DNA from: Gammaproteobacteria bacterium | GTDB taxonomy: Bacteria; Pseudomonadota; Gammaproteobacteria; SZUA-152 | Direction of reading: 5' to 3' | Length of the DNA: 64,000 bases | Assembly: GCA_021647705.1 (NCBI GenBank) | Contig: JAKIUF010000014.1 | Location: 1,577-65,576 of the forward strand | Shown: piece after piece, positions 18,823 to 64,000 of the stretch | Position numbering within the stretch: the stretch's first letter is position 1 | Layout of the letters: each line of letters opens with the position of its first letter | Translations under genes and position numbers: made by a program | Notes under the pieces: generated by a model | What the model saw: only the letters and a program-made list of their open reading frames with translations | Told to the model about the DNA's origin: nothing | Databases searched by the model: none

Positions 18823-18847
18823 TGCAGTTTTTACACCGTATACCTCA

Positions 18848-21294: not shown

Positions 21295-21307
21295 GGACTC
21301 CTATGAA

Positions 21308-33227: not shown

Positions 33228-33384
33228 TACCCGTAGCATTTGATATTTAGGTTTAAGCGTGCATCATATTTTCTCCATGGCAAGGTAAAATGATGCGTAA
33301 TAGTCGCTTTATTGCAAGGAGTTTCAACACCATCATAGGAAAGATAGAGCATGCAACTAAAGTAAATCTTAATCGCTATGAATA
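33228..33384 (+). mobile_element. MITE family B, degenerate copy
   Basis: TACCCGTAGCATTTGATATTTAGGTTTAAGCGTGCATCATATTTTCTCCATGGCAAGG...AATCTTAATCGCTATGAATA is colinear with 42801-42959, but both termini are eroded. Confidence 0.55.
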
Positions 33385-34658
33385 TATATAAATATATTTT
33401 TTACAACATAATCATGGTCTGCTATTAAAACCCCAGCACTTTTTTTATCATCACGAGAAATTCACCATCACCTGTATTTTATTGCAACGAAAACAGTGTA
33501 AGTAATCGCTCCAAAACAGAATTATTTTATAATTAAAACTAAATTGCGGAGCATCATCACTGACACATAGGGCGATATATTATTAGCAATTTTTACTTGA
33601 TAACCGACTGACTTACAGTGTTTTTTGATTACCCTAAAAATCCTATATAAAGAAATGGATATCATGAAAAACGTTAACGATACGAAGGGACATTACCATA
33701 CTGATTGACATTTCTACCTGACTGTACGCTATTGATTACATATCGATAGTAAAATATTTCACAATACAATAATTATTCGTATCATTTTTCATGCCCATAA
33801 AATACACACATTTATTTTCAACACATTTTCCTTAGCCAGCCCGTCAGCCCGTCAGCCCGCGTAAAATTATAATCACCAGGAACATAAACATTTCACCTCA
33901 TCACCAGCATTGACTCTGAAAGACTTAAGTGAACCTATGTAGGTCAGTCATGGAATTCCATAAATACATTCATATTTGTGTAACAAATAAAGATTATTAA
34001 GTGACTATTCATAGACAAAAAATATATGTTATATACCTGTATTAACAACGCTCACCTAAAAACTCAAAGGGGAGGGGTAGTCCTGTTTCTATAATTTTTA
34101 TGGTCCGATTTAATATATTCCCCATGACTCTAAAAACTTTTGGGGATTAACGGGATAATAATTCAGTAAAAATAACTCTACCCATCAGAACGGAATACCA
34201 TGTATGCGCTTTACATGATTACTGGAAAACTGTATTAGCAAAAAATATCAATGAATTTATAAGCCCATTAAAAGACATAAGGACTATTGAAAAATAGTCC
34301 AATATTGGGATTCCTAACGGTGTATTAGACAGTATTGATATTTTGATCAACGGTACAACGCCCGGATAATCATCTGATCAAATAGTTTCATAGATAGATA
34401 CAAGGAAAATATTCAAAAACTTACAATCGATGACTGTTGATCATGCCTCCTCTAAAAAACTATATTAACGCGCATGGAATTCCGTATAATGGACCTCTCT
34501 TTAATGGGATGTATGTTATATATACAAACCGTTACACCAATGAAATCTGGCATACGAACTAATGATGATGAGGAAGAAACGATAATACGAAAATCAAGCA
34601 ATACGGGCCCACATAGTTGATGGAATATTAGCATGGGCATAACAGGGAACAGGGAGAA

Positions 34659-36152
34659 ATGTTAAATATGCTTATAAAAAATCAGCAAAAGTTACTGGAA
34701 CAACTACTTAGCAGTGTCAATCATGAACAAAAAATCTGGCTGGCTGGCTATATGCAGGGTCAAATTGGAACCGTTAATGCCAATACAGCAACCGGTATCC
34801 CTAATATAGAAAAACCACCTGCGATAATTTATTTCGCAACAGAAACGGGCAACGCCAAGGGATTGTCACTTCAAGTGATGAAAGCAATAAAGGCCGAAGG
34901 GTACAAAGTGAAAACTTCGGCCGTTAACCGTTTAAAAGTTAAAGACATAAAACCAGACACGATGACAATATTCATTGTCAGCACACACGGTGAAGGTGAC
35001 CCGCCAGAAAGCGCCCTTCCCTTTTTTGAAGACCTTCAGAATGCAGGTGATGGGCAACTCAATGGATTAAACTATGCGGTGGCAGGGCTGGGTGATGCCA
35101 GTTATGAAATATTCTGTGGCGCGGCAACCAAAATGGATAAAGAATTACAACGCCTCGGTGGAAAATCGTTTCAGGATCCATTTCTATTTGATGTTGATTA
35201 CGCAACTCATACCTCGGCATGGATTGGACAAACGGTTAAATCCATAAACGATCTGGTGGGTGCAAATACTTCCGTTGCAGAAGAAACTTTATCATTAGAA
35301 GAAGAGTTGATAGTACGTACTGGGAAAGGCTACACACGCCTAGAGCCCGTTAAAGGCGTTGTAAAGCATATTGTCTGCTTGAACGACATTGACTCAACCC
35401 GACAAACCTTTCATATCGAAATAGAATATGAAGACGATATCATTTATACCTGTGGAGATGCTGCCGGGGTTATGCTGCCCGATAAAGACCATAATGGCGA
35501 CAACACACCACGACTTTATTCCATCTCCTCCTCTCCCTCTTACCATGAGGGAGAAATCCACCTGACCGTGGCACTGGCAACACATGAAAATGAAGATGGT
35601 GGTATGGGATATGGTACATATTCCAGATATTTGGCAGATCGTCAGGAAGGTGACGAAATTGAGTTTTATATTCACCAAAATCAGATTTTTAATTTAGCCG
35701 CAGATAATAAGGACATCATTATGATCGGCCCCGGCACAGGCATTGCCCCATTCAGGTCTTTCATTTATGAGCGCTCGGAACGTGGAGCCGCAGGACGCAA
35801 CTGGTTATTTTTTGGCGCTCAACATATGCATTGTGATTTTCTTTACCAGACTGAATGGCAAGAACATCTGGCCACTGAAACACTGCATAAAATCGATTTA
35901 GCCTTCTCACGTGATCAGACACATAAAGTTTATGTGCAGGATCGCCTGAAAGAAAAGGCAAAAGATATTGTGGAGTGGATTGATAATGGAGCAATCCTTT
36001 ATCTCTGTGGAACCAGAGACCCAATGAGTAAAGATATTGATCAAGCGTTGATTGATATTATTGCCGCACAGAAGTCTTTATCCCCCGAAGAGGCCGCAAA
36101 TTTTGTTGCTGATTTAGAAGAAAATGACCGTTATTTAAAGGATGTTTACTAA
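34659..36152 (+). CDS. cysJ: sulfite reductase (NADPH) flavoprotein subunit, short form lacking the connecting domain
   Basis: 497 aa. CysJ N-terminus (QKIWLAGYMQG), flavodoxin motifs (TETGNAKGLS, STHGEGDPP), FAD motif RLYSISSS, NADPH motif GPGTGIAPFRSF, and C-terminal RYLKDVY. Only 10 residues lie between GDAAGVM and TPRLYSISSS. The stop overlaps the cysI start (TAATG). Confidence 0.85.
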   Translation: MLNMLIKNQQKLLEQLLSSVNHEQKIWLAGYMQGQIGTVNANTATGIPNIEKPPAIIYFATETGNAKGLSLQVMKAIKAEGYKVKTSAVNRLKVKDIKPDTMTIFIVSTHGEGDPPESALPFFEDLQNAGDGQLNGLNYAVAGLGDASYEIFCGAATKMDKELQRLGGKSFQDPFLFDVDYATHTSAWIGQTVKSINDLVGANTSVAEETLSLEEELIVRTGKGYTRLEPVKGVVKHIVCLNDIDSTRQTFHIEIEYEDDIIYTCGDAAGVMLPDKDHNGDNTPRLYSISSSPSYHEGEIHLTVALATHENEDGGMGYGTYSRYLADRQEGDEIEFYIHQNQIFNLAADNKDIIMIGPGTGIAPFRSFIYERSERGAAGRNWLFFGAQHMHCDFLYQTEWQEHLATETLHKIDLAFSRDQTHKVYVQDRLKEKAKDIVEWIDNGAILYLCGTRDPMSKDIDQALIDIIAAQKSLSPEEAANFVADLEENDRYLKDVY

Positions 36153-37828
36153 TGGACACAGAGATCAACAAACCGGAAAATCTTTCAGACGTTGAAGGAA
36201 TGAAAACCGCAAGCCGTGGCCTTCGTGGTGACTTGAGTGAACAGATGGAGAACCTTCTCACTGGCAATGTGAATGAAGAAGGTAAGCAACTTATTAAATT
36301 TCATGGCTCATATGTTCAAGATAACCGTGACCGACGCGCCGAGCGTGATGATAAAAAACTGGAATGGGCATATTCTTTTATGATTCGCCTGCGTATTCCA
36401 GGCGGAGATGTAAGCGCTCAACAATGGCTCGGACTGCAAGAAAGCTGTGATGACAAAGCAAGTGGTGTGATTAAAATAACTACCCGTCAAACGGTGCAGT
36501 TTCATGGCGTAGTCAAAGCCCGCATGAAGCCTGTAATGAAAGATTTTGATGCCCTTGGCCTGGATGCCATATCAGCATGCGGGGATGTAAACCGCAATGT
36601 GATGACAGGATCAAATCCTGCAATTGTGCGTTTTCATGCCGAAGTCCATGAGTATGCGCAAAAAATCAGTGAGCACTTACTACCAACAAGCAAAGCATAC
36701 AGCGAGATTTGGCTTGATGGTGAAAAGCTTCCCTCTGGACATGAAGCGGAAGAAGACCCTTTATACCAAAACCGTTATCTTCCTCGTAAGTTCAAAATTG
36801 CAATAGCCATTCCTCCGCATAACGATGTGGATACATTCATGAATGACGTAGGCCTTATCGCTGTTGGAGAAGGTGAGTATTTTGAAGGCTTTAACGTCGC
36901 GATTGGGGGTGGTTTGGGAGCAACACATGGCAACAAAAAAACCTACCCACGACGTAGCGATATCATCGGCTTTGTACCAAAAGACAAAGCGCTTGATGTC
37001 TGCTGGCAGATTGCAGCCGTGCAGCGTGATTATGGTAATCGTGAAGACCGAAAATTAGCGCGCCTGAAATATACACTTGACCGCCTGGGGCTTGGTTTTT
37101 TTGTTGGGGAACTTGAAAAACGCCTTGGCTATAAAATGGAGCCCGCACGCAATGTTCCTGCCTTTACCCACCGTGGAGATGCATTTGGATGGGTACAAGA
37201 CTATAAAGGACAATGGTATTACACCGCCTTTGTTGAAAGCGGGCGTGTTATTGATGAGAACGAATACAACATCAAGAGTGCCATGCAGGAAATTGCGGAA
37301 GCGAACTTTTGTGGATTCCGTTTTACCGGCAATCAAAATGTAATGTTCACTTACATTGCTGAAAAAGATAAACCTAAATTCGAAAGTATTTTGTCCAGGC
37401 ATGGCATTACCATTGATGCAATGAACCCGACACGTCGTGAAGCGATGGCCTGTGTAGCACTGCCGACTTGTCCACTTGCATTAGCAGAAGGACAACGTTA
37501 TTTACCAGAATTCGTGACCAAGGTTGAAGCCTTGCAAGAAAAATACGGTATTTTAAGTCGCCCGATTACTACGCGTATTACAGGGTGCCCAAACGGATGT
37601 GGCCGTTCTTATCTCGCAGAAATAGGGTTGGTTGGGAAAAACCCAGGTAAGTATGTTTTGCGCCTTGGCGGTGATTATGAGGGTGAGCGTTTAAACACGG
37701 TTTATCTTGAGGAAGCCGATGAAACAGAAATTTTAAGCACGCTGGATAATCTTCTCAATAAATACACAAGCAACAAACAAGGTACTGAAAGCTTTGGTGA
37801 TTACACACAAAGAACGCTTTTTAGCTAA
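36152..37828 (+). CDS. cysI: sulfite reductase (NADPH) hemoprotein subunit
   Basis: 558 aa. Cys cluster for the siroheme-[4Fe-4S] site (ACVALPTCPLALAE, TGCPNGCGRSYLAE). Translationally coupled to cysJ. Confidence 0.92.
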   Translation: MDTEINKPENLSDVEGMKTASRGLRGDLSEQMENLLTGNVNEEGKQLIKFHGSYVQDNRDRRAERDDKKLEWAYSFMIRLRIPGGDVSAQQWLGLQESCDDKASGVIKITTRQTVQFHGVVKARMKPVMKDFDALGLDAISACGDVNRNVMTGSNPAIVRFHAEVHEYAQKISEHLLPTSKAYSEIWLDGEKLPSGHEAEEDPLYQNRYLPRKFKIAIAIPPHNDVDTFMNDVGLIAVGEGEYFEGFNVAIGGGLGATHGNKKTYPRRSDIIGFVPKDKALDVCWQIAAVQRDYGNREDRKLARLKYTLDRLGLGFFVGELEKRLGYKMEPARNVPAFTHRGDAFGWVQDYKGQWYYTAFVESGRVIDENEYNIKSAMQEIAEANFCGFRFTGNQNVMFTYIAEKDKPKFESILSRHGITIDAMNPTRREAMACVALPTCPLALAEGQRYLPEFVTKVEALQEKYGILSRPITTRITGCPNGCGRSYLAEIGLVGKNPGKYVLRLGGDYEGERLNTVYLEEADETEILSTLDNLLNKYTSNKQGTESFGDYTQRTLFS

Positions 37829-51308: not shown

Positions 51309-51827
51309 CTATTCTTTTTTTAATAAAGCCTGGGAAACGTCAATCGCTTTTTCAAGATAATTATCATATAGACCAGGGGTTTGATAGCCTATAATTTTTG
51401 GCACCAGCTCCTTTCCCGTTGCATCCACCAGCTGCAAGGTCGGCACAACTTCCACGCCACGATCAATCGCAAAATCTTCGGCATTACGCTCACGTCCACT
51501 GAAATCACGCAAGGTGTCGTATTTATCCATCATCACTTTGCGCAAGATAACGCGTTGGGGATCAATTCCCGCGAGGCGCATAGGACCCAGTACTTCTGTT
51601 TCCAGGCGTTTGCAGTAATGGCAATCTTCGGAGGCAAACATCAGCAGGATGGGGACACCCTTTTCGCTCGACAGTTTGCTTAAGGCGGTCATGTCCAGAC
51701 TGATGACGAGTCGCAACTTTTCCGACACGAACAGGTCTTCGTCTTCGTCCATTTCCACGGGGGTTACTCCGGCTGCATACCCAGCAGCCAGATTAAACAG
51801 TAGAAAAAAAGTCAGCAGGTATCGCAT
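51309..51827 (-). CDS. periplasmic thioredoxin-fold protein (CxxC)
   Basis: Start placed at the signal peptide MRYLLTFFLLFNLAAGYAAG (ATG 51827). Redox motif FASEDCHYCKRLE. Confidence 0.75.
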   Translation of the reverse strand: MRYLLTFFLLFNLAAGYAAGVTPVEMDEDEDLFVSEKLRLVISLDMTALSKLSSEKGVPILLMFASEDCHYCKRLETEVLGPMRLAGIDPQRVILRKVMMDKYDTLRDFSGRERNAEDFAIDRGVEVVPTLQLVDATGKELVPKIIGYQTPGLYDNYLEKAIDVSQALLKKE

Positions 51828-51913
51828 TGTAAATACCTTGAAACCACTCCCGTTCACTTTTGTCGTATTCCGGTGTAAACAGGGATAACCGGAGGCGTTA
51901 CTTTCGTCTTTCG

Positions 51914-53920
51914 TCAACCCAGCATATCACGCAAATTTGCCAGATGAGCACGACCACGCTCCTGACGTTCTTCAGGATCAACCTGCTCACCCCGGCCTTC
52001 CCACACCAAATCATCCTCGGGCAATTCACTCAAAAACCGACTGGGTTCGCAGTCTACGGTTTCGCCATGTTTGCGACGACGGGCGGACATGGTGAAGGTC
52101 AGTGTTTTTTGCGCTCGGGTAATCCCGACATACGCGAGCCGCCGCTCTTCTTCTATATCGTCTGCTTCCAGACTGGCATGATGGGGCAGCAGGTTTTCTT
52201 CCATACCCACTACAAACACATGGGGAAATTCCAGCCCTTTGGCGGCATGCAACGTCATCAGTGAAATACAGTCATCACGTTTTTCATCTTCGTTGCGTTC
52301 GAGGATATCCATTAACGTCATCTGTGCTACCAACTCACCGAGCCCGGTGTCACCCTCACCTTTTTCCGCCATGCGTGTCAGCCAGTCCACCAGCTCATGC
52401 ACATTGGCCATGCGCCGCTCAGCACCTTTGGGGTCGTTACAGGTGTCCAGTAGCCAGTCTTCATAACGGATATCGCTGATCACTTCCTTGACCGCCGCCA
52501 CCGGATCACCTCGCTCGGCCAACTCTGCTTTCGCCGCCAGCCAGCGAACAAATTCCCGCACCCGGTTCAAAGCGCGCTCATTCAGCTGCATTTCCAGTCC
52601 CAGCTCATCGCAGGCGGCATACAGACTGATACCCCTCTCGCCTGCATATGTGGCTATTTTCTCCAGCGTGGCCGGGCCGATCTCGCGCCGTGGCGTATTG
52701 ACCACACGCACGAAGGCATTATCATCTTCCGGATTCACCAGCAGGCGCAGGTAAGCCATAATGTCTTTCACTTCCTGGTAGGCGAAAAACGAAGTGCCAC
52801 CGGAAATTTGATACGGCAACTGGTTTTCGCGCAGCCCCTTTTCAAACAATCGTGACTGGTGATTACCACGATACAAAATGGCGTAATCACTAAAATGACC
52901 ACCGTTCTGGAATTTGTGCGCCAACAGCCGCGACACCACTTGTTCGGCTTCATGATCTTCATTACGCGCCTGCACCACTTTGATGGGGTCGCCATAACCC
53001 AGCTCACTCCACAGGCGTTTTTCAAATACATGGGGGTTGTTGTCAATAAGCTGGTTGGCAGCCTTCAAAATGCGCCCTGTGGAACGGTAATTCTGCTCCA
53101 GCTTGATAACTTTCAGCGTGGGGAAATCCTGCGACAACAGCGCCAGATTTTCTGGCTGTGCGCCGCGCCAAGCATAAATGGACTGGTCGTCGTCACCCAC
53201 CACCGTCAATGCGCCGCGCACCCCCACCAGACTCTGCACCAGGCGGTACTGGGCACTATTGGTATCCTGATATTCATCCACCAGCAGATAACGAATACGA
53301 TTCTGCCAGCGCTCCAGTACCTCGGGAAACTCGCTAAACAATTGTGCAGGCAGGCTAATGAGGTCGTCAAAATCCACCGCATTGTAGGCCCGAAGATGAT
53401 GATTGTATTGCTCATACAATATCGAAGCAGCGGTTAATTTGGGATCACCGTTGGCCAAAGCCTGTGCCTGCGCGGAACTGACCATGTCATTTTTCCAGTG
53501 CGAAATTTGCCACTGCATCGACTGCGCCTCATCGTCAGCATCAAAGGCCCGACGCATTAATTCCTTAATCAGCGCCTGTGAGTCCTGCGAGTCATAAATG
53601 GAAAACCCCTTGCGTAACCCCAGCGCCTTGCCGTCACGTTTGAGAATATTCAACCCCAGGTTGTGAAAGGTGGAAACACGCATGCCACGACGTTCAGCGG
53701 CCTTCAATTCACCCTTAAGCCGTGCCCGCATCTCGCGTGAGGCCTTATTGGTAAAAGTCACCGCCGTAATATGGTGGCCTTTGATATCGCAGTTTTGTAC
53801 CAAATGCACGATTTTTTGCGTAATCACACGCGTCTTGCCGGACCCGGCTCCGGCCAGCACCAGTAACGGGCCATCAATGTAACGCACCGCCTCTTTCTGG
53901 CGGGGATTGAGTTGGGACAT
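51914..53920 (-). CDS. rep: ATP-dependent DNA helicase Rep
   Basis: 668 aa. The N-terminus LNPRQKEAVRYIDGPLLVLAGAGSGKTRVITQKIVHL is colinear with E. coli Rep. UvrD/Rep motifs are present throughout, and the length fits Rep rather than UvrD. Confidence 0.93.
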   Translation of the reverse strand: MSQLNPRQKEAVRYIDGPLLVLAGAGSGKTRVITQKIVHLVQNCDIKGHHITAVTFTNKASREMRARLKGELKAAERRGMRVSTFHNLGLNILKRDGKALGLRKGFSIYDSQDSQALIKELMRRAFDADDEAQSMQWQISHWKNDMVSSAQAQALANGDPKLTAASILYEQYNHHLRAYNAVDFDDLISLPAQLFSEFPEVLERWQNRIRYLLVDEYQDTNSAQYRLVQSLVGVRGALTVVGDDDQSIYAWRGAQPENLALLSQDFPTLKVIKLEQNYRSTGRILKAANQLIDNNPHVFEKRLWSELGYGDPIKVVQARNEDHEAEQVVSRLLAHKFQNGGHFSDYAILYRGNHQSRLFEKGLRENQLPYQISGGTSFFAYQEVKDIMAYLRLLVNPEDDNAFVRVVNTPRREIGPATLEKIATYAGERGISLYAACDELGLEMQLNERALNRVREFVRWLAAKAELAERGDPVAAVKEVISDIRYEDWLLDTCNDPKGAERRMANVHELVDWLTRMAEKGEGDTGLGELVAQMTLMDILERNEDEKRDDCISLMTLHAAKGLEFPHVFVVGMEENLLPHHASLEADDIEEERRLAYVGITRAQKTLTFTMSARRRKHGETVDCEPSRFLSELPEDDLVWEGRGEQVDPEERQERGRAHLANLRDMLG

Positions 53921-54267
53921 GGGGACGTTTTTAAACCTGCGGAGTCTGCATAACAGACAAAAATAATGAATAGCTATTGTATACCATCATCATCAGCTTT
54001 CCCGATGAAATACCAAAAAACGACATCATTTACAACTTTTCTGCACTGCATATTATGAGTACATAAAAAAACGCATACGAATAAATAACTGTTTACATGA
54101 TTAAATGTTATACCGTATAACGACATTTGCCGCTCTTCACATTTGTAAATTTTCTTTACATAATCGGGATTTACAATGCATGTTGCCAAACTAGGCTTTT
54201 GGTGGCTCTCCGGCAGACAAGCGGAAAACAGTTTTACTGGCTTTAAAAACGATTAAGGAAACACACT

Positions 54268-57200
54268 TTGCGTATTCGTCATATCAGCACAACCGGTTTT
54301 GTTCTCGTGGCAGCATTGACCAGCCACTTCGTTCACGCCGAAGGGAGTTATCAGGTCGGTCTGAATCAACCCTTTGTTGAATATGGCGCAACCGTTTTTG
54401 GTAATTCACACGATGAGCCTCTGCATGTCGATATTCGCACCGCAGGTGAAGTAATCAACATATCGTTGTGCGGGTATGCAGATACACACGATATCCAGGC
54501 GGAAGTTTATGATCCGCTCGGCAGTTTGGTCGAAACTTTCACGCATAATCACGGCAATGTCTTTTGTAATGATCCCTTTACAGCACCGCTTTCGCTTAAT
54601 GGCCCCCTGGGCGATCAAGGGCCATTCCAGCACACCACCACCACGACAGGCGCATATTCGATCCGCCTCTACAACACAGCTCTTTCTGGCGGCAGCAGCA
54701 GTGAAAGACAGTTAATTCGCCGCTTTGACATCACCGTTACACCTGACAACTCAACGCTCCCGGACCCCTCGGCACAGGCCGGGCGACTCTGGTCCAGCGC
54801 ATGGAGTTTCTGGACAGGATCATTTGCTGAAAATGAAGCCACGGATGCCAATTATTTTCCTCTGGTACCGGGTGGTCGTGCTAATACTCATTATGTTTGG
54901 AAGCTGGATCTGAATAATTTTTCGGGCAACCTGTACACCCTTATCGCAAATGACGTAGGTGTAACAGCACCCGGATCAGGCTATAGCGTTCCTGAAAGCG
55001 GGAACAGTGTTACACCCAAGTATCCCATTTACCTGTCCTATCCCGTCACTGCAAACCCTCGCCCCACCGATCCACCGGAAATCAGCGGGCTGACGTTTAC
55101 AGATGATGCAGGAATAGATTATGGCATTTCACCGGGTACAACACCCAGCGTGCAGGACTCCGGTGTTTTTGAATTCACAACAGATGTGGACGGCACCTAC
55201 GCGCTGGTTATCGATACCAATGACGACGGACAGTTTGGCGCTAACGACACATTGCTACTGGGCAGTGTGGTACCAGGACCGAACCAAATCAACTGGGATG
55301 GAACAGACGAAAATGGTAATACACTGTCACCTGCCATCTACGATGCCCAGCTTCGGGTCAGCCTGGGTGAATACCACTTTGTTACCCGTGATGCCGAAAC
55401 CAGTGGTGGCACTGAAGATGGTCTGACCATTTTCCAGGCAAACGCTGACGGCAGTACCGATAACACCCAGGTTTACTGGGACGATGAAACACTACTTTCG
55501 CCTCCCTCTGGCACCACAACCCTGCCCAACGGTCAGTCGTCTGCAACATCTGCTGGCCACCACACCTGGGGAGACTTCAGCGGAGCAGGTATCGGTAATG
55601 AACGCTATATTGATACTTATGTATATGGCTTAACCGTCAATGCAACAATACAAGCCGCCATCGTACTGGATGACGTCCCCTTAAGCGGTAGCGACGGCAG
55701 TATCGCTTTTTCCGGCACCAGCCTGCCCGGCGATAGCATCCTCATTACCGTCACTGATCCCGACCTCAATACAAACAATACCATCACGCAAAGTGTTGTT
55801 GTACAGGTCAGCAATGACAATACCGGAGAACAGGAGCAGGTATTGCTCACTGAAACCGGTCCCGACACCGCTGTTTTTTCCAACACCATCACCACCCAGC
55901 CGGGAGCCTCGGCAGGCACCAACAACGACGGTGTACTTAACACCCAAAGCGGCCAAAATCTCACCGTCACTTATTACGATCAACTCCACTCAACCAGCAC
56001 CGGCGGCACCTCGCGAACCGCACAAATTCAGGTGGAATTTGATACAGACAACGACGGCATTGCCAACACACTCGACCTCGACAGCGATAACGACGGCATT
56101 CCCGACAGTATTGAAGGCGACGCCAGTGTAGACAGCGATGGTGACGGTATCCCTGACTACCGCGATCTCGACAGCGATAACGATGGCCTGTTTGACCTCA
56201 CGGAATCCGGCATCAGCAACCCTGCTGCGCTTGACACTGATAACGATGGCCGCATTGATAACAGCAACACCGTTGGGGCTAACGGCCTCGCCGACATCGC
56301 AGAAACCAGCGCCGACAGCGGCAGCATTAATTACACCATCGCCGATACCGACACGGATGGCGTCGCCGATTACCGTGATCTCGACAGCGACAACGATGGT
56401 CTGTTCGACATAGCCGAAGCCGGTGGCAGTGATGCCGACAATGACGGCATCCTCGGCAGCGGCGTACCCGGCGTCGATGCCAATGGTCTCGTCAGTGGCG
56501 CGGGTCTGAGCCCTGTCGATACCGATACCGACGGCATCGCCGACTTCCGTGATCTCGACAGCGATGGCGATGGTCTGTTTGACGTAACCGAAGCCGGTGG
56601 CAGCGACCCCGACAACGACGGCATTCTCGGCAGCGGCACACCCGCTGTCGGTGGCAATGGCCTTGCCAGCGGCGCAGGTCTGGCCCTTATCGATACCGAC
56701 AACGACGGTACGCCTGACTATATCGACCTCGATGCGGATAACGACGGTACCCCTGATGCCAGCGATGTTTTCCCCACCAACGGCGGTGAAAGTGCTGACA
56801 ACGACGGTGATGGCGTTGGCAACAACGCTGATCTTGATGCCGACAATGATGGCATTCCTGACAGCATCGAAGGTGACGACAGTGTAGATACCGATAGTGA
56901 TGGCACACCCGACTATCTGGATCGCGACAGTGATGGTGACGGCATCAATGACATCATCGAAGCCGGTGGCATAGATACCAATAATGACGGTTTGGTCGAT
57001 GGTTTCACCGATGCCAACAGCGATGGTCTCGACGATACCCTGGCCACCAATCCATTACCGGTTACCGACAGCGACAACGACGGCACACCTGACTACCGGG
57101 ACAACCGCGACAGTGATAACGATGGCATTCTCGACACACTCGACCTCGACAGTGATAACGACGGCATTCCCGACAGTATCGAAGGCGACGCCAATGTAGA

Positions 57201-60200
57201 CAGCGATGGTGACGGCATTGCCGATTTACTCGATCTCGACAGTGATAACGATGGTCTGTTCGACCTTGTTGAATCCGGCATCAGTAACCCTGCCTCGCTT
57301 GATGGTGACAACAACGGCCGCATTGATGCTACCTCCCCTGTTGGCAATAATGGCCTCGCCGACGCGATAGAGACCGCTGTGGACTCCGGATTGGCGGACT
57401 ATAACAACGATGGTAATCCCGACAGCCCGCGCGACACCGACAGCGATGGCATCGCAGATTACCGTGACCGTGATTCCGACAACGATGGTATTCCCGATGT
57501 TACCGAAACCGGTGGCAATGACCCGGATGGAGACGGCATCCTTGGCAGTGGTGTGCCCACTGTTGATGCCAATGGTCTTGCCAGCGGGGCTGGCCTGAGC
57601 CCGATTGACACGGATAGTGACGGCACTCCTGATCAGCGTGACCCTGACAGTGATGGTGACGGCAGTAACGACATCATTGAAGCTGGCGGCACTGACACCA
57701 ACGGCGACGGCCAGGTGGATAACTTCACCGATGCCAATAATGACGGCTTCGACGATACCCTTGCTGCCACCCCCCTGCCACTGCCCGACAGTGACGGTGA
57801 CAGCATTACCAACAACCTCGATCTCGACAGTGATAACGACGGCATTCCTGACCTTATAGAAGGCAGTAACACCAACGTAGACACCGACAACGATGGCATT
57901 GCTGATTACCTCGACCTAGACAGTGACAACGATGGCCTGTTCGACCTCATAGAATCCGGCATCAACGATCCTGCCAGTCTTGACACCGACAACAATGGCC
58001 GCATCGACGACAGCAACACAGTGGGAACAAACGGTCTTGCCGACATCGCTGAAACCAATGCTGACAGTGGTGTACTTGACTACACCGTTGCCGATACCGA
58101 TGGCGATGGCATTGAGAACTTCCGCGACCTTGACAGTGACAACGATGGCATTCCTGATCTCATCGAAGGTAGTGGCACTGGTGTGGATACCGATAACGAT
58201 GGCATCCCCGACTACCGCGACCTCGACAGTGACAATGACAGCCTGTTCGACCTCACAGAATCCGGTATCAGCGATCCCGCCAGTCTCGACACCGACAACG
58301 ATGGCCGCATTGATGCCGGCAATCCCGTGGGTGCAAATGGTCTTGCCGACATCGTCGAAACCGCTACCGACAGTGGCACACTCGACTACACCGTTGCCGA
58401 CACCGATAGCAACACCCTTGAGGACTTCCGTGATCTCGACAGCGATGGCGACGGTCTGTTCGATGTGATCGAAGCAGGCGGCAGCGATGCTGATAACGAT
58501 GGCATTACGGGTAGCGGTGTACCCAGCGTCGATGCCAATGGTCTCGCCATGGGTGCGGGCCTGATCCCAGCCGACAGCGACGGTGATGGCACATCTGATC
58601 AACGTGATCTCGACGCTGATAACGACGGCACACCCGATGCCAACGATGCCTTCCCCACCGACGACAGCGAAATTGCCGATGGCGATGGCGACGGCATTGG
58701 CAACAACGCCGACCTTGATGCCGACAACGATGGTATTCCGGACAGCATTGAAGGTGACGACAGCGTCGATTCAGACGGTGATGGCACACCGGATTATCTC
58801 GACCGTGACAGCGATGGCGACGGTATCGATGACATCATCGAAGCCGGTGGCACTGATGCCGACAACGATAGTCAGGTGGATGATTTCACCGACACCAACA
58901 ATGATGGCCTCGATGACAACCTCGCCATAACACCTCTGCCAATGACCGACAGCGATGGCGACGGTACCCCGGATTACCGGGATAACGCCGATAGCGATGC
59001 TGATGGTGTCGTCAACAGCCTCGACCTCGATAGTGACAATGACGGTATCCCTGACAGCATCGAAGGTAATGCCAGCATCGACACCGACGGAGACGGCATC
59101 GCCGACTACCTCGATCTCGACAGTGACAACGATGGTATTTCTGACTTGATCGAATCCGGCATCAGTGACCCTGCCACCCTCGATGGTGACAACGATGGCC
59201 GCATTGACGCCAGCAACTCCGTTGGTGATAACGGTCTTGCTGACGCCGTGGAAACCGCAACAGATTCAGGACAGGCGGATTACAATGGTGACGGCAATGC
59301 CGATGCACCGCGTGATACCGACAGCGACGGCACACCGGATTACCGCGACCTCGACAGTGACAACGATGGTATCAACGACATCATCGAAGCAGGCGGTAGC
59401 GATACCAATGCTGACGGCAGAATTGACAATCCCGTGGATACCAACGGAGACGGCCTCCACGACGATCTCGTCAACAGCCCTCTGCCGGATATCCACACCG
59501 ACGCCGACAGCGACGGCATCCCTGACTTCCGGGATAACGACGATCTCGACAACGATGGTATTGCCGACATATCTGATCTCGACAGCGATAACGATGGCAT
59601 TCCTGATCTCATCGAGGGCAGTGATACCCGCGTGGATACCGACAACGACGGCATCCCCGACTACCGTGATCTCGACAGCGACAACGACGGTCTGTTCGAC
59701 CTGACGGAATCCGGCATCAGCAATCCCGCCAGTCTCGACAGCGACAACGATGGTCGCATTGATACCGGCAACACTGTCGGCAGCAATGGTCTCGCCAATG
59801 TGGTGGAAACCGGCGTGGACAGCGGTAGCATCAACTACGTCGTGGCTGATACCGACAGTGATGGTATCGACGACTACCGCGACCGCGATGCCGACAATGA
59901 TGGCATTCCTGATGTCACCGAGTCTGGCGGTAACGACCCTAATGGCGATGGTGTCCTGGGTAACGGCACACCGGTCGTGGATGACAATGGCCTTATCACC
60001 GGTACTGGCTTGACCCCGGTGGACTCTGACAGTGATGGTATCCCTGACTACCGTGACCTCGATAGCGACGGCGATAACATCACCGACATCATCGAAGCGG
60101 GTGGCAGCGACGGCAACAGCGATGGTCAGGTCGATAACGCCACCGATAACAACAATGATGGGCTCGCCGACAATATTGTCAACAACCCTCTGCCACTGCC

Positions 60201-61296
60201 CGACAGTGACGGCAATGGCATCCCGGACTACCGTGACAACGGTGATTTCGACAACGACGGCATTGCCGACACGTCCGATCTTGATACCGACAACGACGGC
60301 ATCCCTGACCTCATTGAAGGCCGTGATACCTCCGTGGATACCGACAGCGATGGCATCCCCGACTACCGCGACCTCGACAGCGACAATGACGGCCTGTTCG
60401 ATCTCGCGGAATCTGGCATCAGCAATCCCGTTAGTCTCGACACTAACAATGATGGCCGCATCGACAACAGCAACACCGTTGGCAGCAATGGCCTAGCCGA
60501 TGCAGTGGAAACCAGTGCGGATAGCGACAGCATCAACTACACGGTAGCCGATACCGATGGCGATGGTCTTGATGACTATCGCGACCTCGACAGCGACGGC
60601 GATGGTATTCCCGACGTGACGGAAGGCGACCGCAGTGATGGTGACAATGACGGTCGTATCGGCACAGGCAATCCGCCGATTGATTTCAATGGTGTTGCCA
60701 GTGGCAGCGGCACAACTGTCCCTGACAGCGACAACGACGGCGTGCCCGATTACCGTGATCTCGACAGCGACAACGACAGCATTACGGATGTTGTGGAAGC
60801 CGGAGGCACAGACAGCGATGGCGACGCCCGCCAGGATGCGACAGGAGACAGCAACAACGATGGCCTCGATGATGCCGTACAAGCCACGCCTCTACCGCTT
60901 TACGACACCGACAGCGATAACACACCAGACTACCGCGACATTGACAGCGACAACGATGGCATCCCGGATCTGTCAGAAACAGGTGCCATTGACCGTGATC
61001 GCGATGGCCGTGTGGATGATTTCAACGACGCCAATAATGATGGCCTGGACGATAGTCTGAGCGGCACAGTCCCCGACCTGCCCGACAGCAATGGCAATGG
61101 CATCGCAGACTACCGTGACCCTGCCACAGCCAGCGAGCCAAAAACCGTACGCACCGGCCTGGATGGACTGGGCGGCTGCACACTCAACCCTGCGGCTGCC
61201 TTCGACCCCACGCTGCCCCTGCTGCTGCTCATCGCCCTGCTTTCCCTCTGGCGCAGAAAATCTGTATCAGACAAACACCTGCAACCCGGAAAATAA
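54268..61296 (+). CDS. giant secreted calcium-binding surface protein with thrombospondin type-3 repeats and a C-terminal sorting-signal-like tail
   Basis: 2342 aa. TTG start 10 nt after AAGGA, with no nearby in-frame ATG. Sec signal peptide (GFVLVAALTSHFVHA-EG). About 590-aa non-repeat N-terminal region, then about 1700 aa of DxDxDGxxDxxD repeats. The tail is GLGGC...LPLLLLIALLSLWRRK. Confidence 0.9.
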   Translation: MRIRHISTTGFVLVAALTSHFVHAEGSYQVGLNQPFVEYGATVFGNSHDEPLHVDIRTAGEVINISLCGYADTHDIQAEVYDPLGSLVETFTHNHGNVFCNDPFTAPLSLNGPLGDQGPFQHTTTTTGAYSIRLYNTALSGGSSSERQLIRRFDITVTPDNSTLPDPSAQAGRLWSSAWSFWTGSFAENEATDANYFPLVPGGRANTHYVWKLDLNNFSGNLYTLIANDVGVTAPGSGYSVPESGNSVTPKYPIYLSYPVTANPRPTDPPEISGLTFTDDAGIDYGISPGTTPSVQDSGVFEFTTDVDGTYALVIDTNDDGQFGANDTLLLGSVVPGPNQINWDGTDENGNTLSPAIYDAQLRVSLGEYHFVTRDAETSGGTEDGLTIFQANADGSTDNTQVYWDDETLLSPPSGTTTLPNGQSSATSAGHHTWGDFSGAGIGNERYIDTYVYGLTVNATIQAAIVLDDVPLSGSDGSIAFSGTSLPGDSILITVTDPDLNTNNTITQSVVVQVSNDNTGEQEQVLLTETGPDTAVFSNTITTQPGASAGTNNDGVLNTQSGQNLTVTYYDQLHSTSTGGTSRTAQIQVEFDTDNDGIANTLDLDSDNDGIPDSIEGDASVDSDGDGIPDYRDLDSDNDGLFDLTESGISNPAALDTDNDGRIDNSNTVGANGLADIAETSADSGSINYTIADTDTDGVADYRDLDSDNDGLFDIAEAGGSDADNDGILGSGVPGVDANGLVSGAGLSPVDTDTDGIADFRDLDSDGDGLFDVTEAGGSDPDNDGILGSGTPAVGGNGLASGAGLALIDTDNDGTPDYIDLDADNDGTPDASDVFPTNGGESADNDGDGVGNNADLDADNDGIPDSIEGDDSVDTDSDGTPDYLDRDSDGDGINDIIEAGGIDTNNDGLVDGFTDANSDGLDDTLATNPLPVTDSDNDGTPDYRDNRDSDNDGILDTLDLDSDNDGIPDSIEGDANVDSDGDGIADLLDLDSDNDGLFDLVESGISNPASLDGDNNGRIDATSPVGNNGLADAIETAVDSGLADYNNDGNPDSPRDTDSDGIADYRDRDSDNDGIPDVTETGGNDPDGDGILGSGVPTVDANGLASGAGLSPIDTDSDGTPDQRDPDSDGDGSNDIIEAGGTDTNGDGQVDNFTDANNDGFDDTLAATPLPLPDSDGDSITNNLDLDSDNDGIPDLIEGSNTNVDTDNDGIADYLDLDSDNDGLFDLIESGINDPASLDTDNNGRIDDSNTVGTNGLADIAETNADSGVLDYTVADTDGDGIENFRDLDSDNDGIPDLIEGSGTGVDTDNDGIPDYRDLDSDNDSLFDLTESGISDPASLDTDNDGRIDAGNPVGANGLADIVETATDSGTLDYTVADTDSNTLEDFRDLDSDGDGLFDVIEAGGSDADNDGITGSGVPSVDANGLAMGAGLIPADSDGDGTSDQRDLDADNDGTPDANDAFPTDDSEIADGDGDGIGNNADLDADNDGIPDSIEGDDSVDSDGDGTPDYLDRDSDGDGIDDIIEAGGTDADNDSQVDDFTDTNNDGLDDNLAITPLPMTDSDGDGTPDYRDNADSDADGVVNSLDLDSDNDGIPDSIEGNASIDTDGDGIADYLDLDSDNDGISDLIESGISDPATLDGDNDGRIDASNSVGDNGLADAVETATDSGQADYNGDGNADAPRDTDSDGTPDYRDLDSDNDGINDIIEAGGSDTNADGRIDNPVDTNGDGLHDDLVNSPLPDIHTDADSDGIPDFRDNDDLDNDGIADISDLDSDNDGIPDLIEGSDTRVDTDNDGIPDYRDLDSDNDGLFDLTESGISNPASLDSDNDGRIDTGNTVGSNGLANVVETGVDSGSINYVVADTDSDGIDDYRDRDADNDGIPDVTESGGNDPNGDGVLGNGTPVVDDNGLITGTGLTPVDSDSDGIPDYRDLDSDGDNITDIIEAGGSDGNSDGQVDNATDNNNDGLADNIVNNPLPLPDSDGNGIPDYRDNGDFDNDGIADTSDLDTDNDGIPDLIEGRDTSVDTDSDGIPDYRDLDSDNDGLFDLAESGISNPVSLDTNNDGRIDNSNTVGSNGLADAVETSADSDSINYTVADTDGDGLDDYRDLDSDGDGIPDVTEGDRSDGDNDGRIGTGNPPIDFNGVASGSGTTVPDSDNDGVPDYRDLDSDNDSITDVVEAGGTDSDGDARQDATGDSNNDGLDDAVQATPLPLYDTDSDNTPDYRDIDSDNDGIPDLSETGAIDRDRDGRVDDFNDANNDGLDDSLSGTVPDLPDSNGNGIADYRDPATASEPKTVRTGLDGLGGCTLNPAAAFDPTLPLLLLIALLSLWRRKSVSDKHLQPGK
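56041..61120 (+). repeat. coding tandem-repeat region (TSP3 Ca-binding repeats arranged in three or four larger module types)
   Basis: Module A (DLDSDNDGIPDxIEG...DLDSDNDGLFDLxESGI...GRID...NGLAD) starts near 56081, 57150, 57828, 58134, 59029, 59581 and 60283. It is interleaved with EAGG-containing modules at irregular spacing. Confidence 0.85.
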
Positions 61297-61304
61297 AAAA
61301 AACC

Positions 61305-62801
61305 ATGCCAAAATATTTCATTCATCTCACCGGCTGCCTGCTGGGCACCACGCTGATGTTCAGTACACCAATGGTTATTGCCACAGAAACATCCGCAGAT
61401 ATCGATACCTTCGATAAACAATGGTATCTGGGAGCAGGTCTCGGGCGATCCACACTACAACCGGACACCGACGGCACAGGTTTCAGCCTGGATGACAAAA
61501 ATGATACCGGCTACAAATTTTTTGCCGGTTATGACTTCACGGAACGTTTTTCGCTGGAAGGTTATTTTTCCCGGCTGGGCCAATCCGAACTGTCCCCCAA
61601 CGGCACAGTGAAATATCAAGACTTCGGCATCAGCGCGCTGTATTACCTCTACAAGTCCCGGCAACCCCATGTGGGCTGGGGTATCTTTGGCCGTGGCGGT
61701 ATCGGTCGCATGAAAAATACCGTCGATATTCCCTATGAACGCGAGAATGACAACCACATTATGTTCGGTGCCGGCGTGGAATACGGTTTCAATAACGGCC
61801 TTGCCCTGCGACTCGATGCTGACTTTTATGACAGCGATGCACAACTCGTTGCCATCAATATACTGAAACGTTTTGGTGCCGACAAAAAGGACAGCAAACC
61901 GCAACCGGTTGCCGTAATCGACAGCGACAACGATGGCATTGCCAACGATGCGGACCGCTGCCCCGATTCAGCCGCTGACACAGTGGTCGATAGCCAGGGC
62001 TGCGAACTGGATAGTGATAACGACGGAGTGGTCAACAGTCAGGACCGTTGTTCAAATTCACCGGCCGGCAAAAAAGTCGATGCATACGGCTGTGAACTCG
62101 ACAGTGACAACGACGGCGTTGCAGACAGCCGCGACAGCTGCCCGAACTCACCCGCAGACGTAAAAGTTGACCCAAGCGGCTGCGAACTCGACAGTGACAG
62201 CGACGGAGTCACAGACAATAACGACCGTTGCCCGGACACACCCGCAGGCGTAAAGGTTGGCCTAAACGGCTGTGAACTCGACAGTGACGGCGACGGAGTC
62301 ACAGACAACAACGATAACTGCCCGAACTCAGCCACAGGTGCAAAGGTCGATACACGTGGCTGTGAACTCGACGATGATGCTGATGGCATAATTAACAGTC
62401 AGGATCTCTGTCTTGAGACACCCAGCGAAGCACCCGTGGATACAAACGGTTGTAAACTGCAAGCCACATTCGTCCTCAAAGGTGTCACCTTTGCCACCGC
62501 CTCCGCAGAGCTGATTGGCGGCTCTCGGCAAGTGCTCAATAAAGTGGTTGAAACCCTGCGCCTCAACCCTGAACTCAAACTGGAAATCGCGGGCTACACC
62601 GACAACCGGGGCAAGCGTAGTTATAACGTACGACTTTCACAGCAACGTGCAGACTCTGTGCGCAACTATCTCATTACCCAGGGAATTGCCAGTGAGCGCC
62701 TAGAAGCCAAAGGCTATGGTCCGGCTGACGCCATTGCCGACAATGGTACTGAAGATGGTCGTGCAACCAACCGCCGGGTAACGCTACACATCATCGAATA
62801 A
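61305..62801 (+). CDS. OmpA-family outer-membrane protein: N-terminal beta-barrel, TSP3/Cys repeats, C-terminal peptidoglycan-binding OmpA domain
   Basis: 498 aa. Signal peptide; barrel-like segment (YLGAGLGRS..., FGAGVEYGF); C-terminal GYTDNRGKRSYNVRLSQQRADSVRNYL...NRRVTLHI. Lies 8 nt after the giant gene. Confidence 0.9.
   Translation: MPKYFIHLTGCLLGTTLMFSTPMVIATETSADIDTFDKQWYLGAGLGRSTLQPDTDGTGFSLDDKNDTGYKFFAGYDFTERFSLEGYFSRLGQSELSPNGTVKYQDFGISALYYLYKSRQPHVGWGIFGRGGIGRMKNTVDIPYERENDNHIMFGAGVEYGFNNGLALRLDADFYDSDAQLVAINILKRFGADKKDSKPQPVAVIDSDNDGIANDADRCPDSAADTVVDSQGCELDSDNDGVVNSQDRCSNSPAGKKVDAYGCELDSDNDGVADSRDSCPNSPADVKVDPSGCELDSDSDGVTDNNDRCPDTPAGVKVGLNGCELDSDGDGVTDNNDNCPNSATGAKVDTRGCELDDDADGIINSQDLCLETPSEAPVDTNGCKLQATFVLKGVTFATASAELIGGSRQVLNKVVETLRLNPELKLEIAGYTDNRGKRSYNVRLSQQRADSVRNYLITQGIASERLEAKGYGPADAIADNGTEDGRATNRRVTLHIIE
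61920..62459 (+). repeat. six tandem 30-aa (90-bp) repeats DSDxDGVxDxxDxCPxSPAGxKVDxxGCEL
   Basis: Read directly from the translation. Each unit contains one DxDxDG calcium-binding loop and two Cys residues. Confidence 0.85.
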
Positions 62802-62821
62802 AACCATCGCCCGGAAAACCG

Positions 62822-62862
62822 GCCCGTGTCTCCTATTCTGCAAAGGAAACACGGGCTTTTTT
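62822..62862 (+). terminator. rho-independent terminator after the OmpA-family gene
   Basis: GCCCGTGT ... ACACGGGC stem (8 bp, 19-nt loop) followed by TTTTTT. Confidence 0.75.
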
Positions 62863-62890
62863 ATGCAAGAACCTTTCTGGAGATACATCT

Positions 62891-63346
62891 GTGATGAATG
62901 TCCACGCACCCAAACAACTGAAAAGCCTGTTTCAAGACTCCCTATTCTGGCTGGCCCTGCTGGCTGGCCCAGCGACATGGACAGCACTCTATTTCTGGTT
63001 ACCTTACTTACCTGTCCAAAGTGAACATCTGAATCAATGGTGGACACTGCTGCTTTTGGCAGGCCTGTACCCACTACTGGAAGAATGGTTATTTCGTGGT
63101 TTGTTACAACCACAACTGTTAACCTTTCGCCCGTTGCGAACCCGAATTCTAGGCATCAGTAACGCCAATCTGCTAACCAGTCTACTATTCGCTGCGGCCC
63201 ACCTGTTTGTTCAGTCTCCCCTTTGGGCTGCCGCAGTTATTGTGCCTTCACTGGTCTTCGGTGCCTTTCGCGACCGTTATCAAAGTGTCGTTCCCGCCAT
63301 TATCCTGCACAGTTTTTACAATCTTGGTTATTTTCTTGTTTTCTGA
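62891..63346 (+). CDS. CPBP-family (CAAX protease / Abi, PF02517-type) glutamic intramembrane endopeptidase
   Basis: 151 aa (GTG 62891 or ATG 62894). About four TM helices and all three family motifs: LLEEWLFRGLL (EExxxR), FAAAHL (FxxxH), ILHSFYNL (HxxxN). Confidence 0.8.
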   Translation: MMNVHAPKQLKSLFQDSLFWLALLAGPATWTALYFWLPYLPVQSEHLNQWWTLLLLAGLYPLLEEWLFRGLLQPQLLTFRPLRTRILGISNANLLTSLLFAAAHLFVQSPLWAAAVIVPSLVFGAFRDRYQSVVPAIILHSFYNLGYFLVF

Positions 63347-63554: not shown

Positions 63555-64000
63555 TTAAATCGCCGCTTCCCCAAAATCATAAAAAGCGATATCCGAGCCG
63601 AAGCCTTTCTCCAGTAATACATCACGTAATTTTTCGTGTACCAGAATGGCATTCGTAGATTCCGCCAGACGAAACATCTGAATGCCTTTGGTGGTGGTCT
63701 CATCCACCACCAGTTCATCAAAGTCCACGTCAATCAGTGGAATGCCGTCATGCGCCGTAGCAACGGATTTGTCCATGTCGGCAGCGGCAATCAATCCCAG
63801 CATGTTAACTACTTTGTAGTGGGTGTGTATTGCGCCATCATCCGGGTCATGAATAGCCACATCGTAAAGGTCAAAATCATAGACACCACACTCCTTGAGT
63901 GCGGCAATAAAATCATCGCGCCACAGCGGGGGATTGGTATAAATAATCGCTCCCATGTACTGGTCTTCAGCAGGGGAGCGTGGCTCGTAAGGGTCAAGTG
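63555..64000 (-). CDS. Imm11-like (DUF1629) immunity protein, possibly 5'-truncated by the window edge
   Basis: The frame stays open from the tracked Met (63956) to base 64000 (LDPYEPRSPAEDQY-MGAII...). The C-terminal pattern IQMFRLAESTNAILVHEKLRDVLLEKGFGSDIAFYDF resembles the Imm11 consensus (FRL...iiVSEefk..le..g.tG.eF) from memory. Confidence 0.45.
   Translation of the reverse strand, partial: LDPYEPRSPAEDQYMGAIIYTNPPLWRDDFIAALKECGVYDFDLYDVAIHDPDDGAIHTHYKVVNMLGLIAAADMDKSVATAHDGIPLIDVDFDELVVDETTTKGIQMFRLAESTNAILVHEKLRDVLLEKGFGSDIAFYDFGEAAI

Follow-up and report, generated by a model that had tools for sequence, protein, structure and literature searches.

A probable three-gene JDVT-CTERM sorting cassette with an outer-membrane barrel partner in a gammaproteobacterial genome

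We analysed a 64,000-nucleotide (nt) stretch of a Gammaproteobacteria genome (assembly GCA_021647705.1, contig JAKIUF010000014.1, positions 1,577 to 65,576), hereafter the window, and concentrated on three neighbouring genes that probably form a JDVT-CTERM sorting cassette, in which a client is combined with an anchor and a sorting enzyme. The open reading frames (ORFs) lie on the + strand at 54268-61296 (2342 amino acids, aa), 61305-62801 (498 aa) and 62891-63346, and confirm the three same-strand neighbours, with 8 nt between the first two, that a reading of the sequence alone (the original prediction) had reported. The first gene encodes a giant Asp-rich protein, the second an OmpA-like protein with a barrel, and the third a CPBP-type protease, MrtJ. 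The gene of the giant starts with TTG, 8-9 nt after an AAGGAA ribosome-binding site. Each of two upstream promoter candidates has 10 of 12 hexamer matches, but such sites are no commoner here than in shuffled sequence, and the assignment is therefore weak. We placed the start of mrtJ at ATG 62894, giving 150 rather than the 151 aa first proposed, because homologues begin with MN(V/A) and the identical 150-aa protein is present in a public assembly. The client and protease genes are 1.6 kb apart on the same strand, with one gene between them. The features of the locus are as follows.

54029-54056 and 54136-54164, + strand: two sigma-70-like promoter candidates, in the AT-rich region 54029..54164 before the gene of the giant
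54268..61296, + strand: JDVT-CTERM client (the giant), from the ORF, NCBIfam match and composition; signal peptide at aa 1-24, beta-sandwich head at 25-~590, Asp-rich repeats at ~590-2290, then the sorting tail
54340..56034, + strand: N-terminal head of the giant, a beta-sandwich chain, from the AlphaFold2 model and homologues
56035..61137, + strand: putative calcium-loop repeat region of the giant, ~1700 aa, from motif counts and tandem repeats
61147..61179, + strand: VRTGLDGLGGC motif, aa 2294-2304, from an alignment of 29 tails
61171..61293, + strand: JDVT-CTERM sorting domain, from NF033191
61305..62801, + strand: TraB-like barrel partner, 498 aa, from PF13505, PF01389, PF02412, PF00691 and the 5wtl match
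62821..62862, + strand: terminator-like hairpin and U6 tract, from folding energy
62894..63346, + strand: MrtJ, 150 aa, from NF033192, PF02517 and the catalytic motifs

The giant ends in GGCTLNPAAAFDPTLPLLLLIALLSLWRRK, a tripartite tail in which a Cys motif precedes a hydrophobic helix and a basic cluster. GGC is followed by a DP pair nine residues past the Cys, then by a helix rich in Leu, an RRK cluster and a short tail in the cytoplasm. The JDVT-CTERM model NF033191 (curated cut-off 27 bits) matched residues 2302-2331, with 39.7 bits for the whole giant and 44.9 bits for its last 98 aa, and the GlyGly-CTERM and MYXO-CTERM models gave no match to the tail. A single Cys (C2304) precedes D2313-P2314, and this distance of nine residues from Cys to Asp recurs in 27 of 29 aligned tails. 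No other JDVT-type tail is encoded in the window.

The third gene product matched the MrtJ model NF033192 with 105.3 bits (cut-off 75), so that both halves of the JDVT-CTERM/MrtJ pairing named in the original prediction pass their curated cut-offs. The next best model was MrtP with 68.2 bits, under its cut-off of 250, and PF02517 scored 61.9 bits against a gathering score of 22.4. The catalytic motifs E64-E65-xxx-R69, F100-xxx-H104 and H140-xxx-N144 are intact, as originally described, and are invariant in 25 homologues. The AlphaFold2 model is all-helical with a mean predicted local distance difference test (pLDDT) score of 90.5. Because a Foldseek search of this model against the PDB found nothing below E = 5 and a profile search of PDB sequences also found nothing, the relationship of MrtJ to Rce1 rests on Pfam and NCBIfam. 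We read the protein as the putative glutamic-type (CPBP/Rce1-like) intramembrane protease of the JDVT-CTERM system, predicted to cleave the tail. Family membership of client and protease is supported, at the level of sequence, by both NCBIfam models, the Cys-DP spacing and the invariant catalytic motifs. In the literature we searched, MrtJ is named only in the preprint of Haft (bioRxiv 10.1101/2023.06.07.544157) and in PMC11980579.

The OmpA-like protein begins with a signal peptide (aa 1-26), followed by an 8-strand-type barrel (aa 27-200) that matched OMP_b-brl (PF13505) and OmpA_membrane (PF01389) at residues 29-177. Residues 206-383 hold six 30-aa DxDxDG...C...C units with 12 Cys (PF02412 TSP_3, 85.4 bits), and an OmpA domain (PF00691) occupies residues 395-490; the repeat count and the Pfam matches thus bear out the expectation of a barrel and a peptidoglycan-binding domain split by six TSP3/Cys repeats. 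PDB 5wtl, a structure of TSP3 and OmpA parts, matched aa 236-497 (E = 1e-42). The OmpA domain is predicted to bind peptidoglycan, and the TSP3 spacer lies on the periplasmic side of the barrel. The TraB model NF033763 (curated cut-off 700 bits) gave 176.2 bits, with its best stretch confined to the TSP3/OmpA part (aa 325-496), and the barrel alone had no match to this model at E ≤ 10. Of the whole protein, only the OmpA domain matched the PdsO model (TIGR03789), with 90.8 bits where the cut-off is 152.2. We rejected a lipoprotein reading of L-T-G-C at residues 8-11: the Cys is too near the N-terminus to belong to a lipobox, and a longer hydrophobic stretch ending VIA/TE follows it.

The first gene was predicted to encode an extremely Asp-rich protein with a signal peptide and a sorting-like tail, and its composition (20.9% Asp, net charge ~ -480) agrees with this, as does the NF033191 match. 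The signal peptide was recognized by eye, with cleavage at ~HA/EG and a mature start EGSxQ that is kept in 38 homologues. The giant contains only three Cys (positions 68, 100 and 2304). Its repeat region has the pattern DxDxDGxxD, 25.9% Asp, zero Lys and zero Cys; 76 DxDxDG motifs run from residue 592 to 2242, with a super-repeat at an offset of 627 aa and DNA tandem repeats of 174 and 306 nt. The loops of the proposed TSP3 repeats are thus present, but the Pfam class is not: neither TSP_3 (PF02412) nor TSP3_bac (PF18884) matched the giant, at E ≤ 0.01 for the whole protein or E ≤ 0.1 for a 200-aa repeat segment. A hidden Markov model (HMM) built from the neighbour's TSP3 units aligned in the giant over their first 8-12 positions only, which are the calcium loop. 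Because Pfam was negative and the HMM matched the loop only, we describe the repeats as Cys-less TSP3-like calcium loops and not as canonical TSP3. The client repeats of relatives do match PF18884. We did not accept the high G+C of 54-62 kb (0.55-0.57) as a sign of horizontal transfer, because GAC and GGC codons in a giant with 21% Asp and 12% Gly explain the composition.

The head of the giant (residues 25-~590) is of a family that recurs in many adhesin-like proteins. We detected 93 homologues, in Gammaproteobacteria, Cyanobacteria and other groups, in which the head is combined with DUF11, SdrD-B, GEVED, cadherin-like or tandem-95 modules. An AlphaFold2 model from a 38-sequence alignment is all-beta and multi-domain (pLDDT 90.4, predicted template modelling score 0.84). 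Foldseek returned only generic Ig-like and macroglobulin-like chains (Nitrosopumilus S-layer, complement, alpha-2-macroglobulin), all with TM < 0.2, and no function could be read from these matches. The head resembles a module of adhesin type more than an enzyme.

We assessed the conservation of the three genes at 38 loci with MrtJ relatives from species-representative genomes, found with patterns derived from an 11-sequence MrtJ alignment, and searched their ORFs with the domains of the window. The hosts are all uncultured or little studied, mostly Gammaproteobacteria, Chromatiales, Ectothiorhodospiraceae, Thiodiazotropha and Thiomicrorhabdus, with two Nitrospirota and a few others. For 18 of the 35 loci with readable upstream DNA, the order is a DxDxDG-rich JDVT-tailed client, a barrel protein and MrtJ, with the genes tightly spaced or overlapping. 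The junctions are complete at 17 of these trio loci (L002-L004, L006-L014, L017, L018, L021, L022 and L032), and L015 is cut. MrtJ identities across the trio loci range from 78% down to ~42%, and the trio-linked MrtJs fall on at least three branches of a neighbour-joining tree. All-against-all clustering of the flanking ORFs found only the three trio families to be common to the set, and nothing else was shared beyond close relatives. The co-conservation proposed as a check therefore holds for the gene order at 18 other loci and does not extend to the flanks.

The constant part of the middle gene is the barrel (E = 1e-46 to 1e-102), whereas its TSP3 and OmpA parts are present at some loci and absent at others. 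The number of TSP3 units ranges from 0 to 6, with no detectable spacer at 8 of the 18 trio loci, and the OmpA domain is missing from two Thiodiazotropha loci, which encode a 187-aa barrel only. The original prediction had proposed a calcium-bridged tether through TSP3 chemistry shared by the giant and its neighbour. This is unsupported as a conserved mechanism because the spacer is dispensable and lies on the periplasmic side; the giant shares only the loop with it, and it is the barrel itself that is conserved.

The presence of the barrel follows the type of client. It accompanies all 19 DxDxDG clients (the window included) and none of the nine loci with non-acidic clients, at which the client lies directly beside MrtJ and no barrel gene occurs between or nearby. 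Six of these two-gene loci are Thiomicrorhabdus or have Thiomicrorhabdus-like clients, and the others are L028, L036 and L037. The alignment of 29 tails separates the same groups. The motif [VLI]xTG[LI]xG[VL]GG stands directly before the Cys in 19 of 19 trio clients, with one or two substitutions in single loci, and the ten tails from the nine two-gene loci have Ser/Gly linkers in its place. This motif, xTGLxGxGG for short, sits upstream of the stretch covered by NF033191. The trio clients carry different heads (window-type beta-sandwich, FG-GAP, Big_13, GEVED), whereas their acidic repeats do not differ in this manner. A conserved barrel as the third partner of JDVT-CTERM/MrtJ appears not to have been described before. 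The literature we searched contained no description of a barrel partner for JDVT-CTERM systems; in the Haft preprint, calcium, TraB, OmpA and thrombospondin are not mentioned, and the word 'barrel' refers to the sortase A fold only.

Three further arrangements were observed among the sampled loci. Two loci without a recognizable client encode signal-peptide proteins that end in an aromatic pattern (…GLNWQMH or …LGLAWMF) and resemble outer-membrane beta-barrels, one directly upstream of the MrtJ homologue (L026:6502-7485) and one a single gene away (L035:5973-6671); phmmer found no relation between either of them and the barrel of the window. In a record labelled as a Halobacteria archaeon metagenome-assembled genome (MAG), a unit of three genes (for a membrane protein of 222 aa, a protein of 140 aa and an MrtJ-like CPBP protein of 147 aa) is duplicated in tandem (L027:6725-10423) with no client tail nearby. 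A unit of this type occurs once at L030.

We compared the barrel domain with 1.84 billion representative proteins by exhaustive phmmer search and obtained 1292 matches at E ≤ 1e-3, of which 61 reached E ≤ 1e-30. In-frame fusions of acidic repeats, a sorting signal and the barrel, with the barrel more than 150 residues from the N-terminus, make up 55 of the best 151 representatives. These proteins come from a protein library without genomic context or names. Their upstream parts have a median of 16% Asp (n = 47 with > 300 residues upstream), and the whole fusion proteins also carry 'choice-of-anchor D' domains. A strict TG[LIV]xG occurs in the 110 residues before the barrel in 33 of the 55, and a relaxed version in 46 of the 55. 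One sampled locus shows such a fusion in context: at L014:1004-5254, a JDVT-CTERM client with head, repeats and tail is joined in frame to a barrel-OmpA protein. Its junction consists of the JDVT tail helix, RRR and a signal-peptide-like hydrophobic stretch, and the fusion is followed by a second client, a barrel gene and mrtJ, which gives two clients in one locus. The L014-type junction recurs in frame and with substitutions in two diverged representatives (P0223, P0226), so the reading frame of the fusion is conserved. By our count, only 13 of the 55 have two strong hydrophobic segments ahead of the barrel; a hairpin of helix, RRR and signal peptide is documented for some of the fusions and not for all.

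We searched ten junction segments with the NCBIfam models. Three Cys-containing junctions pass the JDVT-CTERM cut-off (30.2, 40.7 and 41.7 bits), one Gly-rich junction passes that of GlyGly-CTERM (17.5 against 15.5 bits), and the other six, the GxGxFNxW type included, are under the cut-off of every sorting-signal model. Because most fusions are without the Cys and DP motif, the barrel partnership is not specific to MrtJ. P0231, P0237, P0253, P0254, P0260, P0264 and others have xTGLxGxG, a hydrophobic helix and a basic cluster with no Cys and no DP, as in TGLKGVGQFNLWILLVL...K. No NCBIfam sorting-signal model matches this type, and it may be an unclassified C-terminal sorting signal.

The barrel and MrtJ also occur without a client. 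At L041 (a Granulosicoccaceae MAG) and L042 (an ENA contig), a homologous barrel-TSP3-OmpA gene overlaps the start of mrtJ, and no client was found within 10 kb of the pair. In Sulfuricella sp. T08 (L040:4240-16349), a complete gsp (type II secretion) operon contains an MrtJ homologue, encoded between gspF and gspG, and no JDVT-like tail was found in the 20 kb searched at this locus.

We compared the cassette to known sorting systems. JDVT-CTERM/MrtJ was described in silico by Haft, who found the CPBP protease by partial phylogenetic profiling and reported a two-gene neighbourhood, typically with one client per genome and with the pair adjacent in 16 of 17 cases, counted in cultured genomes (bioRxiv 10.1101/2023.06.07.544157). 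The window shares with it the single Cys, the near-invariant DP nine residues later, which in the family definition falls inside the helix, the Leu-rich helix, the basic cluster and a small same-strand CPBP protease nearby. It differs in that the window and 18 further loci have a barrel gene between client and protease, and in that trio clients share acidic DxDxDG repeats and xTGLxGxGG upstream of the region of the model. As far as sequence allows a comparison, the cassette agrees with the JDVT-CTERM/MrtJ family on every testable feature but strict adjacency.

The closest architectural parallel is TraA/TraB of Myxococcus xanthus. Cleavage of the TraA MYXO-CTERM by the myxosortase MrtX has been shown experimentally, both in M. 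xanthus and in E. coli, and depends on the Cys residues; in the working model, export by Sec is followed by lipidation of the Cys, a cut within the membrane and passage to the surface through type II secretion (PMC11980579). The statement that the mechanism of such CPBP sorting proteases is essentially untested is thus outdated for the enzyme class. TraB consists of a barrel, TSP3 repeats and an OmpA domain, is encoded after traA, forms a 1:1 complex with TraA and requires its OmpA domain (PMC12045341, PMC6372800); it anchors TraA complexes to peptidoglycan. Both loci have a Cys-tagged surface protein upstream of a barrel-TSP3-OmpA protein, and in both the tag is, or would be, processed by a CPBP protease, those of the two systems being closely related. 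However, the window is gammaproteobacterial with a JDVT tag, whereas TraA/TraB is from Myxococcota with a MYXO tag, and the protease of the window is dedicated and adjacent, whereas MrtX is a housekeeping enzyme with ~35 clients. The client of the window has a beta-sandwich head and Cys-less acidic loops, in contrast to the PA14-like variable domain and Cys-rich stalk of TraA; no Pfam match to a PA14-like domain was found on the giant, and its repeats are without Cys. No outer-membrane exchange function is implied for the cassette. The resemblance to TraAB is one of architecture and presumed working, and not of family.

Other systems share single aspects. The PdsO/target/sortase system (TIGR03789; PMC11580497) also encodes a single-client sorting enzyme with its target and an OmpA-like protein, but there the enzyme is a sortase with an LPXTG-type signal as its substrate. 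The structure PDB 5wtl (Dai et al. 2017, cited in PMC12045341) shows disulfide-bracketed calcium-binding TSP3 units followed by an OmpA domain, and is silent on any sorting-signal partner. GlyGly-CTERM/rhombosortase (PMC3237569, PMC6219818) has a tripartite signal, a cut by an intramembrane protease and type II secretion to the surface; it differs in using a serine rhomboid protease and in having no Cys in the signal.

We consider a three-gene sorting cassette the best account of the locus. The giant would be exported by Sec and held in the inner membrane by its JDVT-CTERM helix, with the RRK cluster in the cytoplasm. Cys2304 would then be modified, most likely by lipidation, by analogy with MYXO-CTERM and CAAX substrates. 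MrtJ, with its EExxxR, FxxxH, HxxxN site in the membrane, would cut just past the Cys and free the helix. The mature giant would be moved to the outer membrane or the cell surface, probably by type II secretion, where its modified C-terminus, after xTGLxGxGG, may dock on or beside the barrel encoded by the next gene. By binding peptidoglycan, the periplasmic TSP3 and OmpA part that the barrel protein has in this organism could provide a load-bearing base for the giant, as TraB does for TraA. The ~1700-aa Asp-rich region would bind Ca2+ and form an extended polyanionic stalk that displays the beta-sandwich head as an adhesin-like tip. The domains, the model matches, the conserved gene order, the fusions and the gsp context are observations; modification, cleavage, exposure on the surface, contact of client and barrel, and calcium binding are inferred from them and from analogy.

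Several points weigh against this account. JDVT-CTERM/MrtJ is so far a purely bioinformatic concept of two genes, directly adjacent in nearly all of Haft's cultured genomes, and at our locus a terminator-like hairpin stands between the barrel gene and mrtJ. Folding confirmed this hairpin, which had been predicted, at ~62821-62857 before the U6 tract (-23.3 kcal/mol, z = -3.07); a consensus terminator scan missed it because its loop is 9 nt. The spacing of the two genes in relatives is 8-220 nt, or they overlap, and the hairpin probably attenuates rather than ends the operon. The sequence of the barrel has no detectable relation to that of the TraB barrel, most fusion proteins are without the Cys and DP motif, and the structural searches with MrtJ were empty. 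Type II secretion genes were not found within the window. The sample of loci is biased, since its patterns came from the MrtJ clade of the window, and the proportion of trios should not be read as an unbiased frequency. Ancestry is shared among the trio loci as well, and the contrast of 19/19 and 0/9 does not represent 28 independent events.

A wider interpretation, which we regard as possible and hold only tentatively, is that the small barrel founds a class of outer-membrane partners, widespread but so far undescribed, that serve surface proteins processed at their C-terminus. An acidic client ending in xTGLxGxG and a tripartite signal, which may be JDVT-CTERM, GlyGly-CTERM-like or Cys-less, would be made beside the barrel or fused to it. 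In the fused form, a sorting protease and signal peptidase might split the precursor on either side of the helix-RRR-signal-peptide hairpin, with xTGLxGxG as a barrel-docking element.

It is unlikely that the barrel instead aids export or assembly of the giant after tail processing, in the manner of an usher or autotransporter, with the fusions as passenger-barrel polyproteins. Long passenger-like parts fused to a C-terminal barrel are indeed common, and barrel-only versions without OmpA, both in Thiodiazotropha and among the representatives, indicate that wall binding is dispensable in some lineages. However, the barrel has ~170 aa and matches the 8-strand OmpA-type families PF01389 and PF13505, and an 8-strand OmpA-type barrel is too narrow for the passage of a polypeptide. 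The fusions also hold a membrane helix and a basic cluster between passenger and barrel, which autotransporters are without. Type II secretion is the route of the related sorting systems (PMC11980579), and a gsp operon encloses one of the MrtJ genes.

We give an equally small chance to a processed giant that stays in the periplasm and serves there as an envelope spacer or as a polyanionic buffer for calcium or metals, held by a lipid anchor in the inner membrane or in the outer membrane's inner leaflet. The periplasmic position of the neighbour's TSP3 spacer and OmpA domain, the DxDxDG loops in both proteins and the window without secretion genes would fit such a role. It is at odds with the head family, which keeps company with DUF11, GEVED, cadherin-like and SdrD-B modules and, in fused relatives, with a choice-of-anchor D domain, all typical of surface proteins, and with the surface exposure of MYXO-CTERM and GlyGly-CTERM clients (PMC11980579). 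The trio loci do not conserve the TSP3 spacer, and an extended protein of 2300 aa would probably fit poorly in the periplasm. Least probable, and already disfavoured, is that the OmpA-like gene is an ordinary envelope gene lying by chance between the members of a two-gene pair: Haft's two-gene neighbourhood, beside which no other cluster had more than 6 members, and the hairpin before mrtJ would be compatible with this, but the same order at 18 loci with unrelated flanks, the 55 in-frame fusions, the barrel-mrtJ pairs without a client and the strict tie of the barrel to acidic xTGLxGxGG clients all speak against it.

Ways of fixing very large proteins outside the Gram-negative outer membrane are known for a few systems only. 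If the three genes form a sorting cassette, the trio adds a conserved third component with the architecture of TraB, the only characterized partner of a myxosortase client, and TraA/TraB may therefore be one case of a general design in which a sorted protein is paired with a wall-linked barrel. The natural fusions imply that one precursor should be split into two envelope proteins, and they point to the residues involved. With three genes and one client, the compact cassette would be a simpler model than Myxococcus for the modification of the Cys, the cut site, the route to the surface and retention there. The hosts are mostly uncultured sulfur-oxidizing, vent or sediment Gammaproteobacteria, including Thiodiazotropha symbionts, for which a huge calcium-binding filament on the surface could matter in attachment.

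We also inspected the remainder of the window. Rfam and tRNA scans of the whole window gave no matches. A thioredoxin-like gene (51309-51917) was considered as part of the system, as Haft noted TlpA-like neighbours at some JDVT-CTERM loci (bioRxiv 10.1101/2023.06.07.544157). We rejected it: it lies on the opposite strand, is coupled to a helicase gene of the UvrD/Rep type and does not recur near other trios. Downstream of mrtJ, a gene with a weak Imm11-like match (63555-63956, - strand) is the first of a minus-strand run of small genes. In a matching public contig (L039:2809-7908), this run continues to an Imm11 gene and a Tox-PAAR-like gene, and from these matches it looks like a polymorphic-toxin and immunity cassette. 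A cluster of seven genes at 13127-22663 (- strand) probably serves the export of a surface glycan or glycolipid: it encodes an outer-membrane protein of the alginate-export type, an ABC exporter whose transmembrane domain is fused, two APH-like kinases, two glycosyltransferases of the GT1 family and a protein of 451 aa without a Pfam match. A region of ~1.3 kb (33121-34451) that lies shortly before a sulfite-reductase-like gene pair (34659-37828) is free of ORFs of ≥ 50 aa on both strands; its G+C is low (~0.38, window ~0.47), and it has no Rfam match and short repeats only. Finally, the gene at 27895-28458 (+ strand) encodes a 187-aa protein with a retropepsin-like aspartyl protease domain (PF13975, E = 3e-26).

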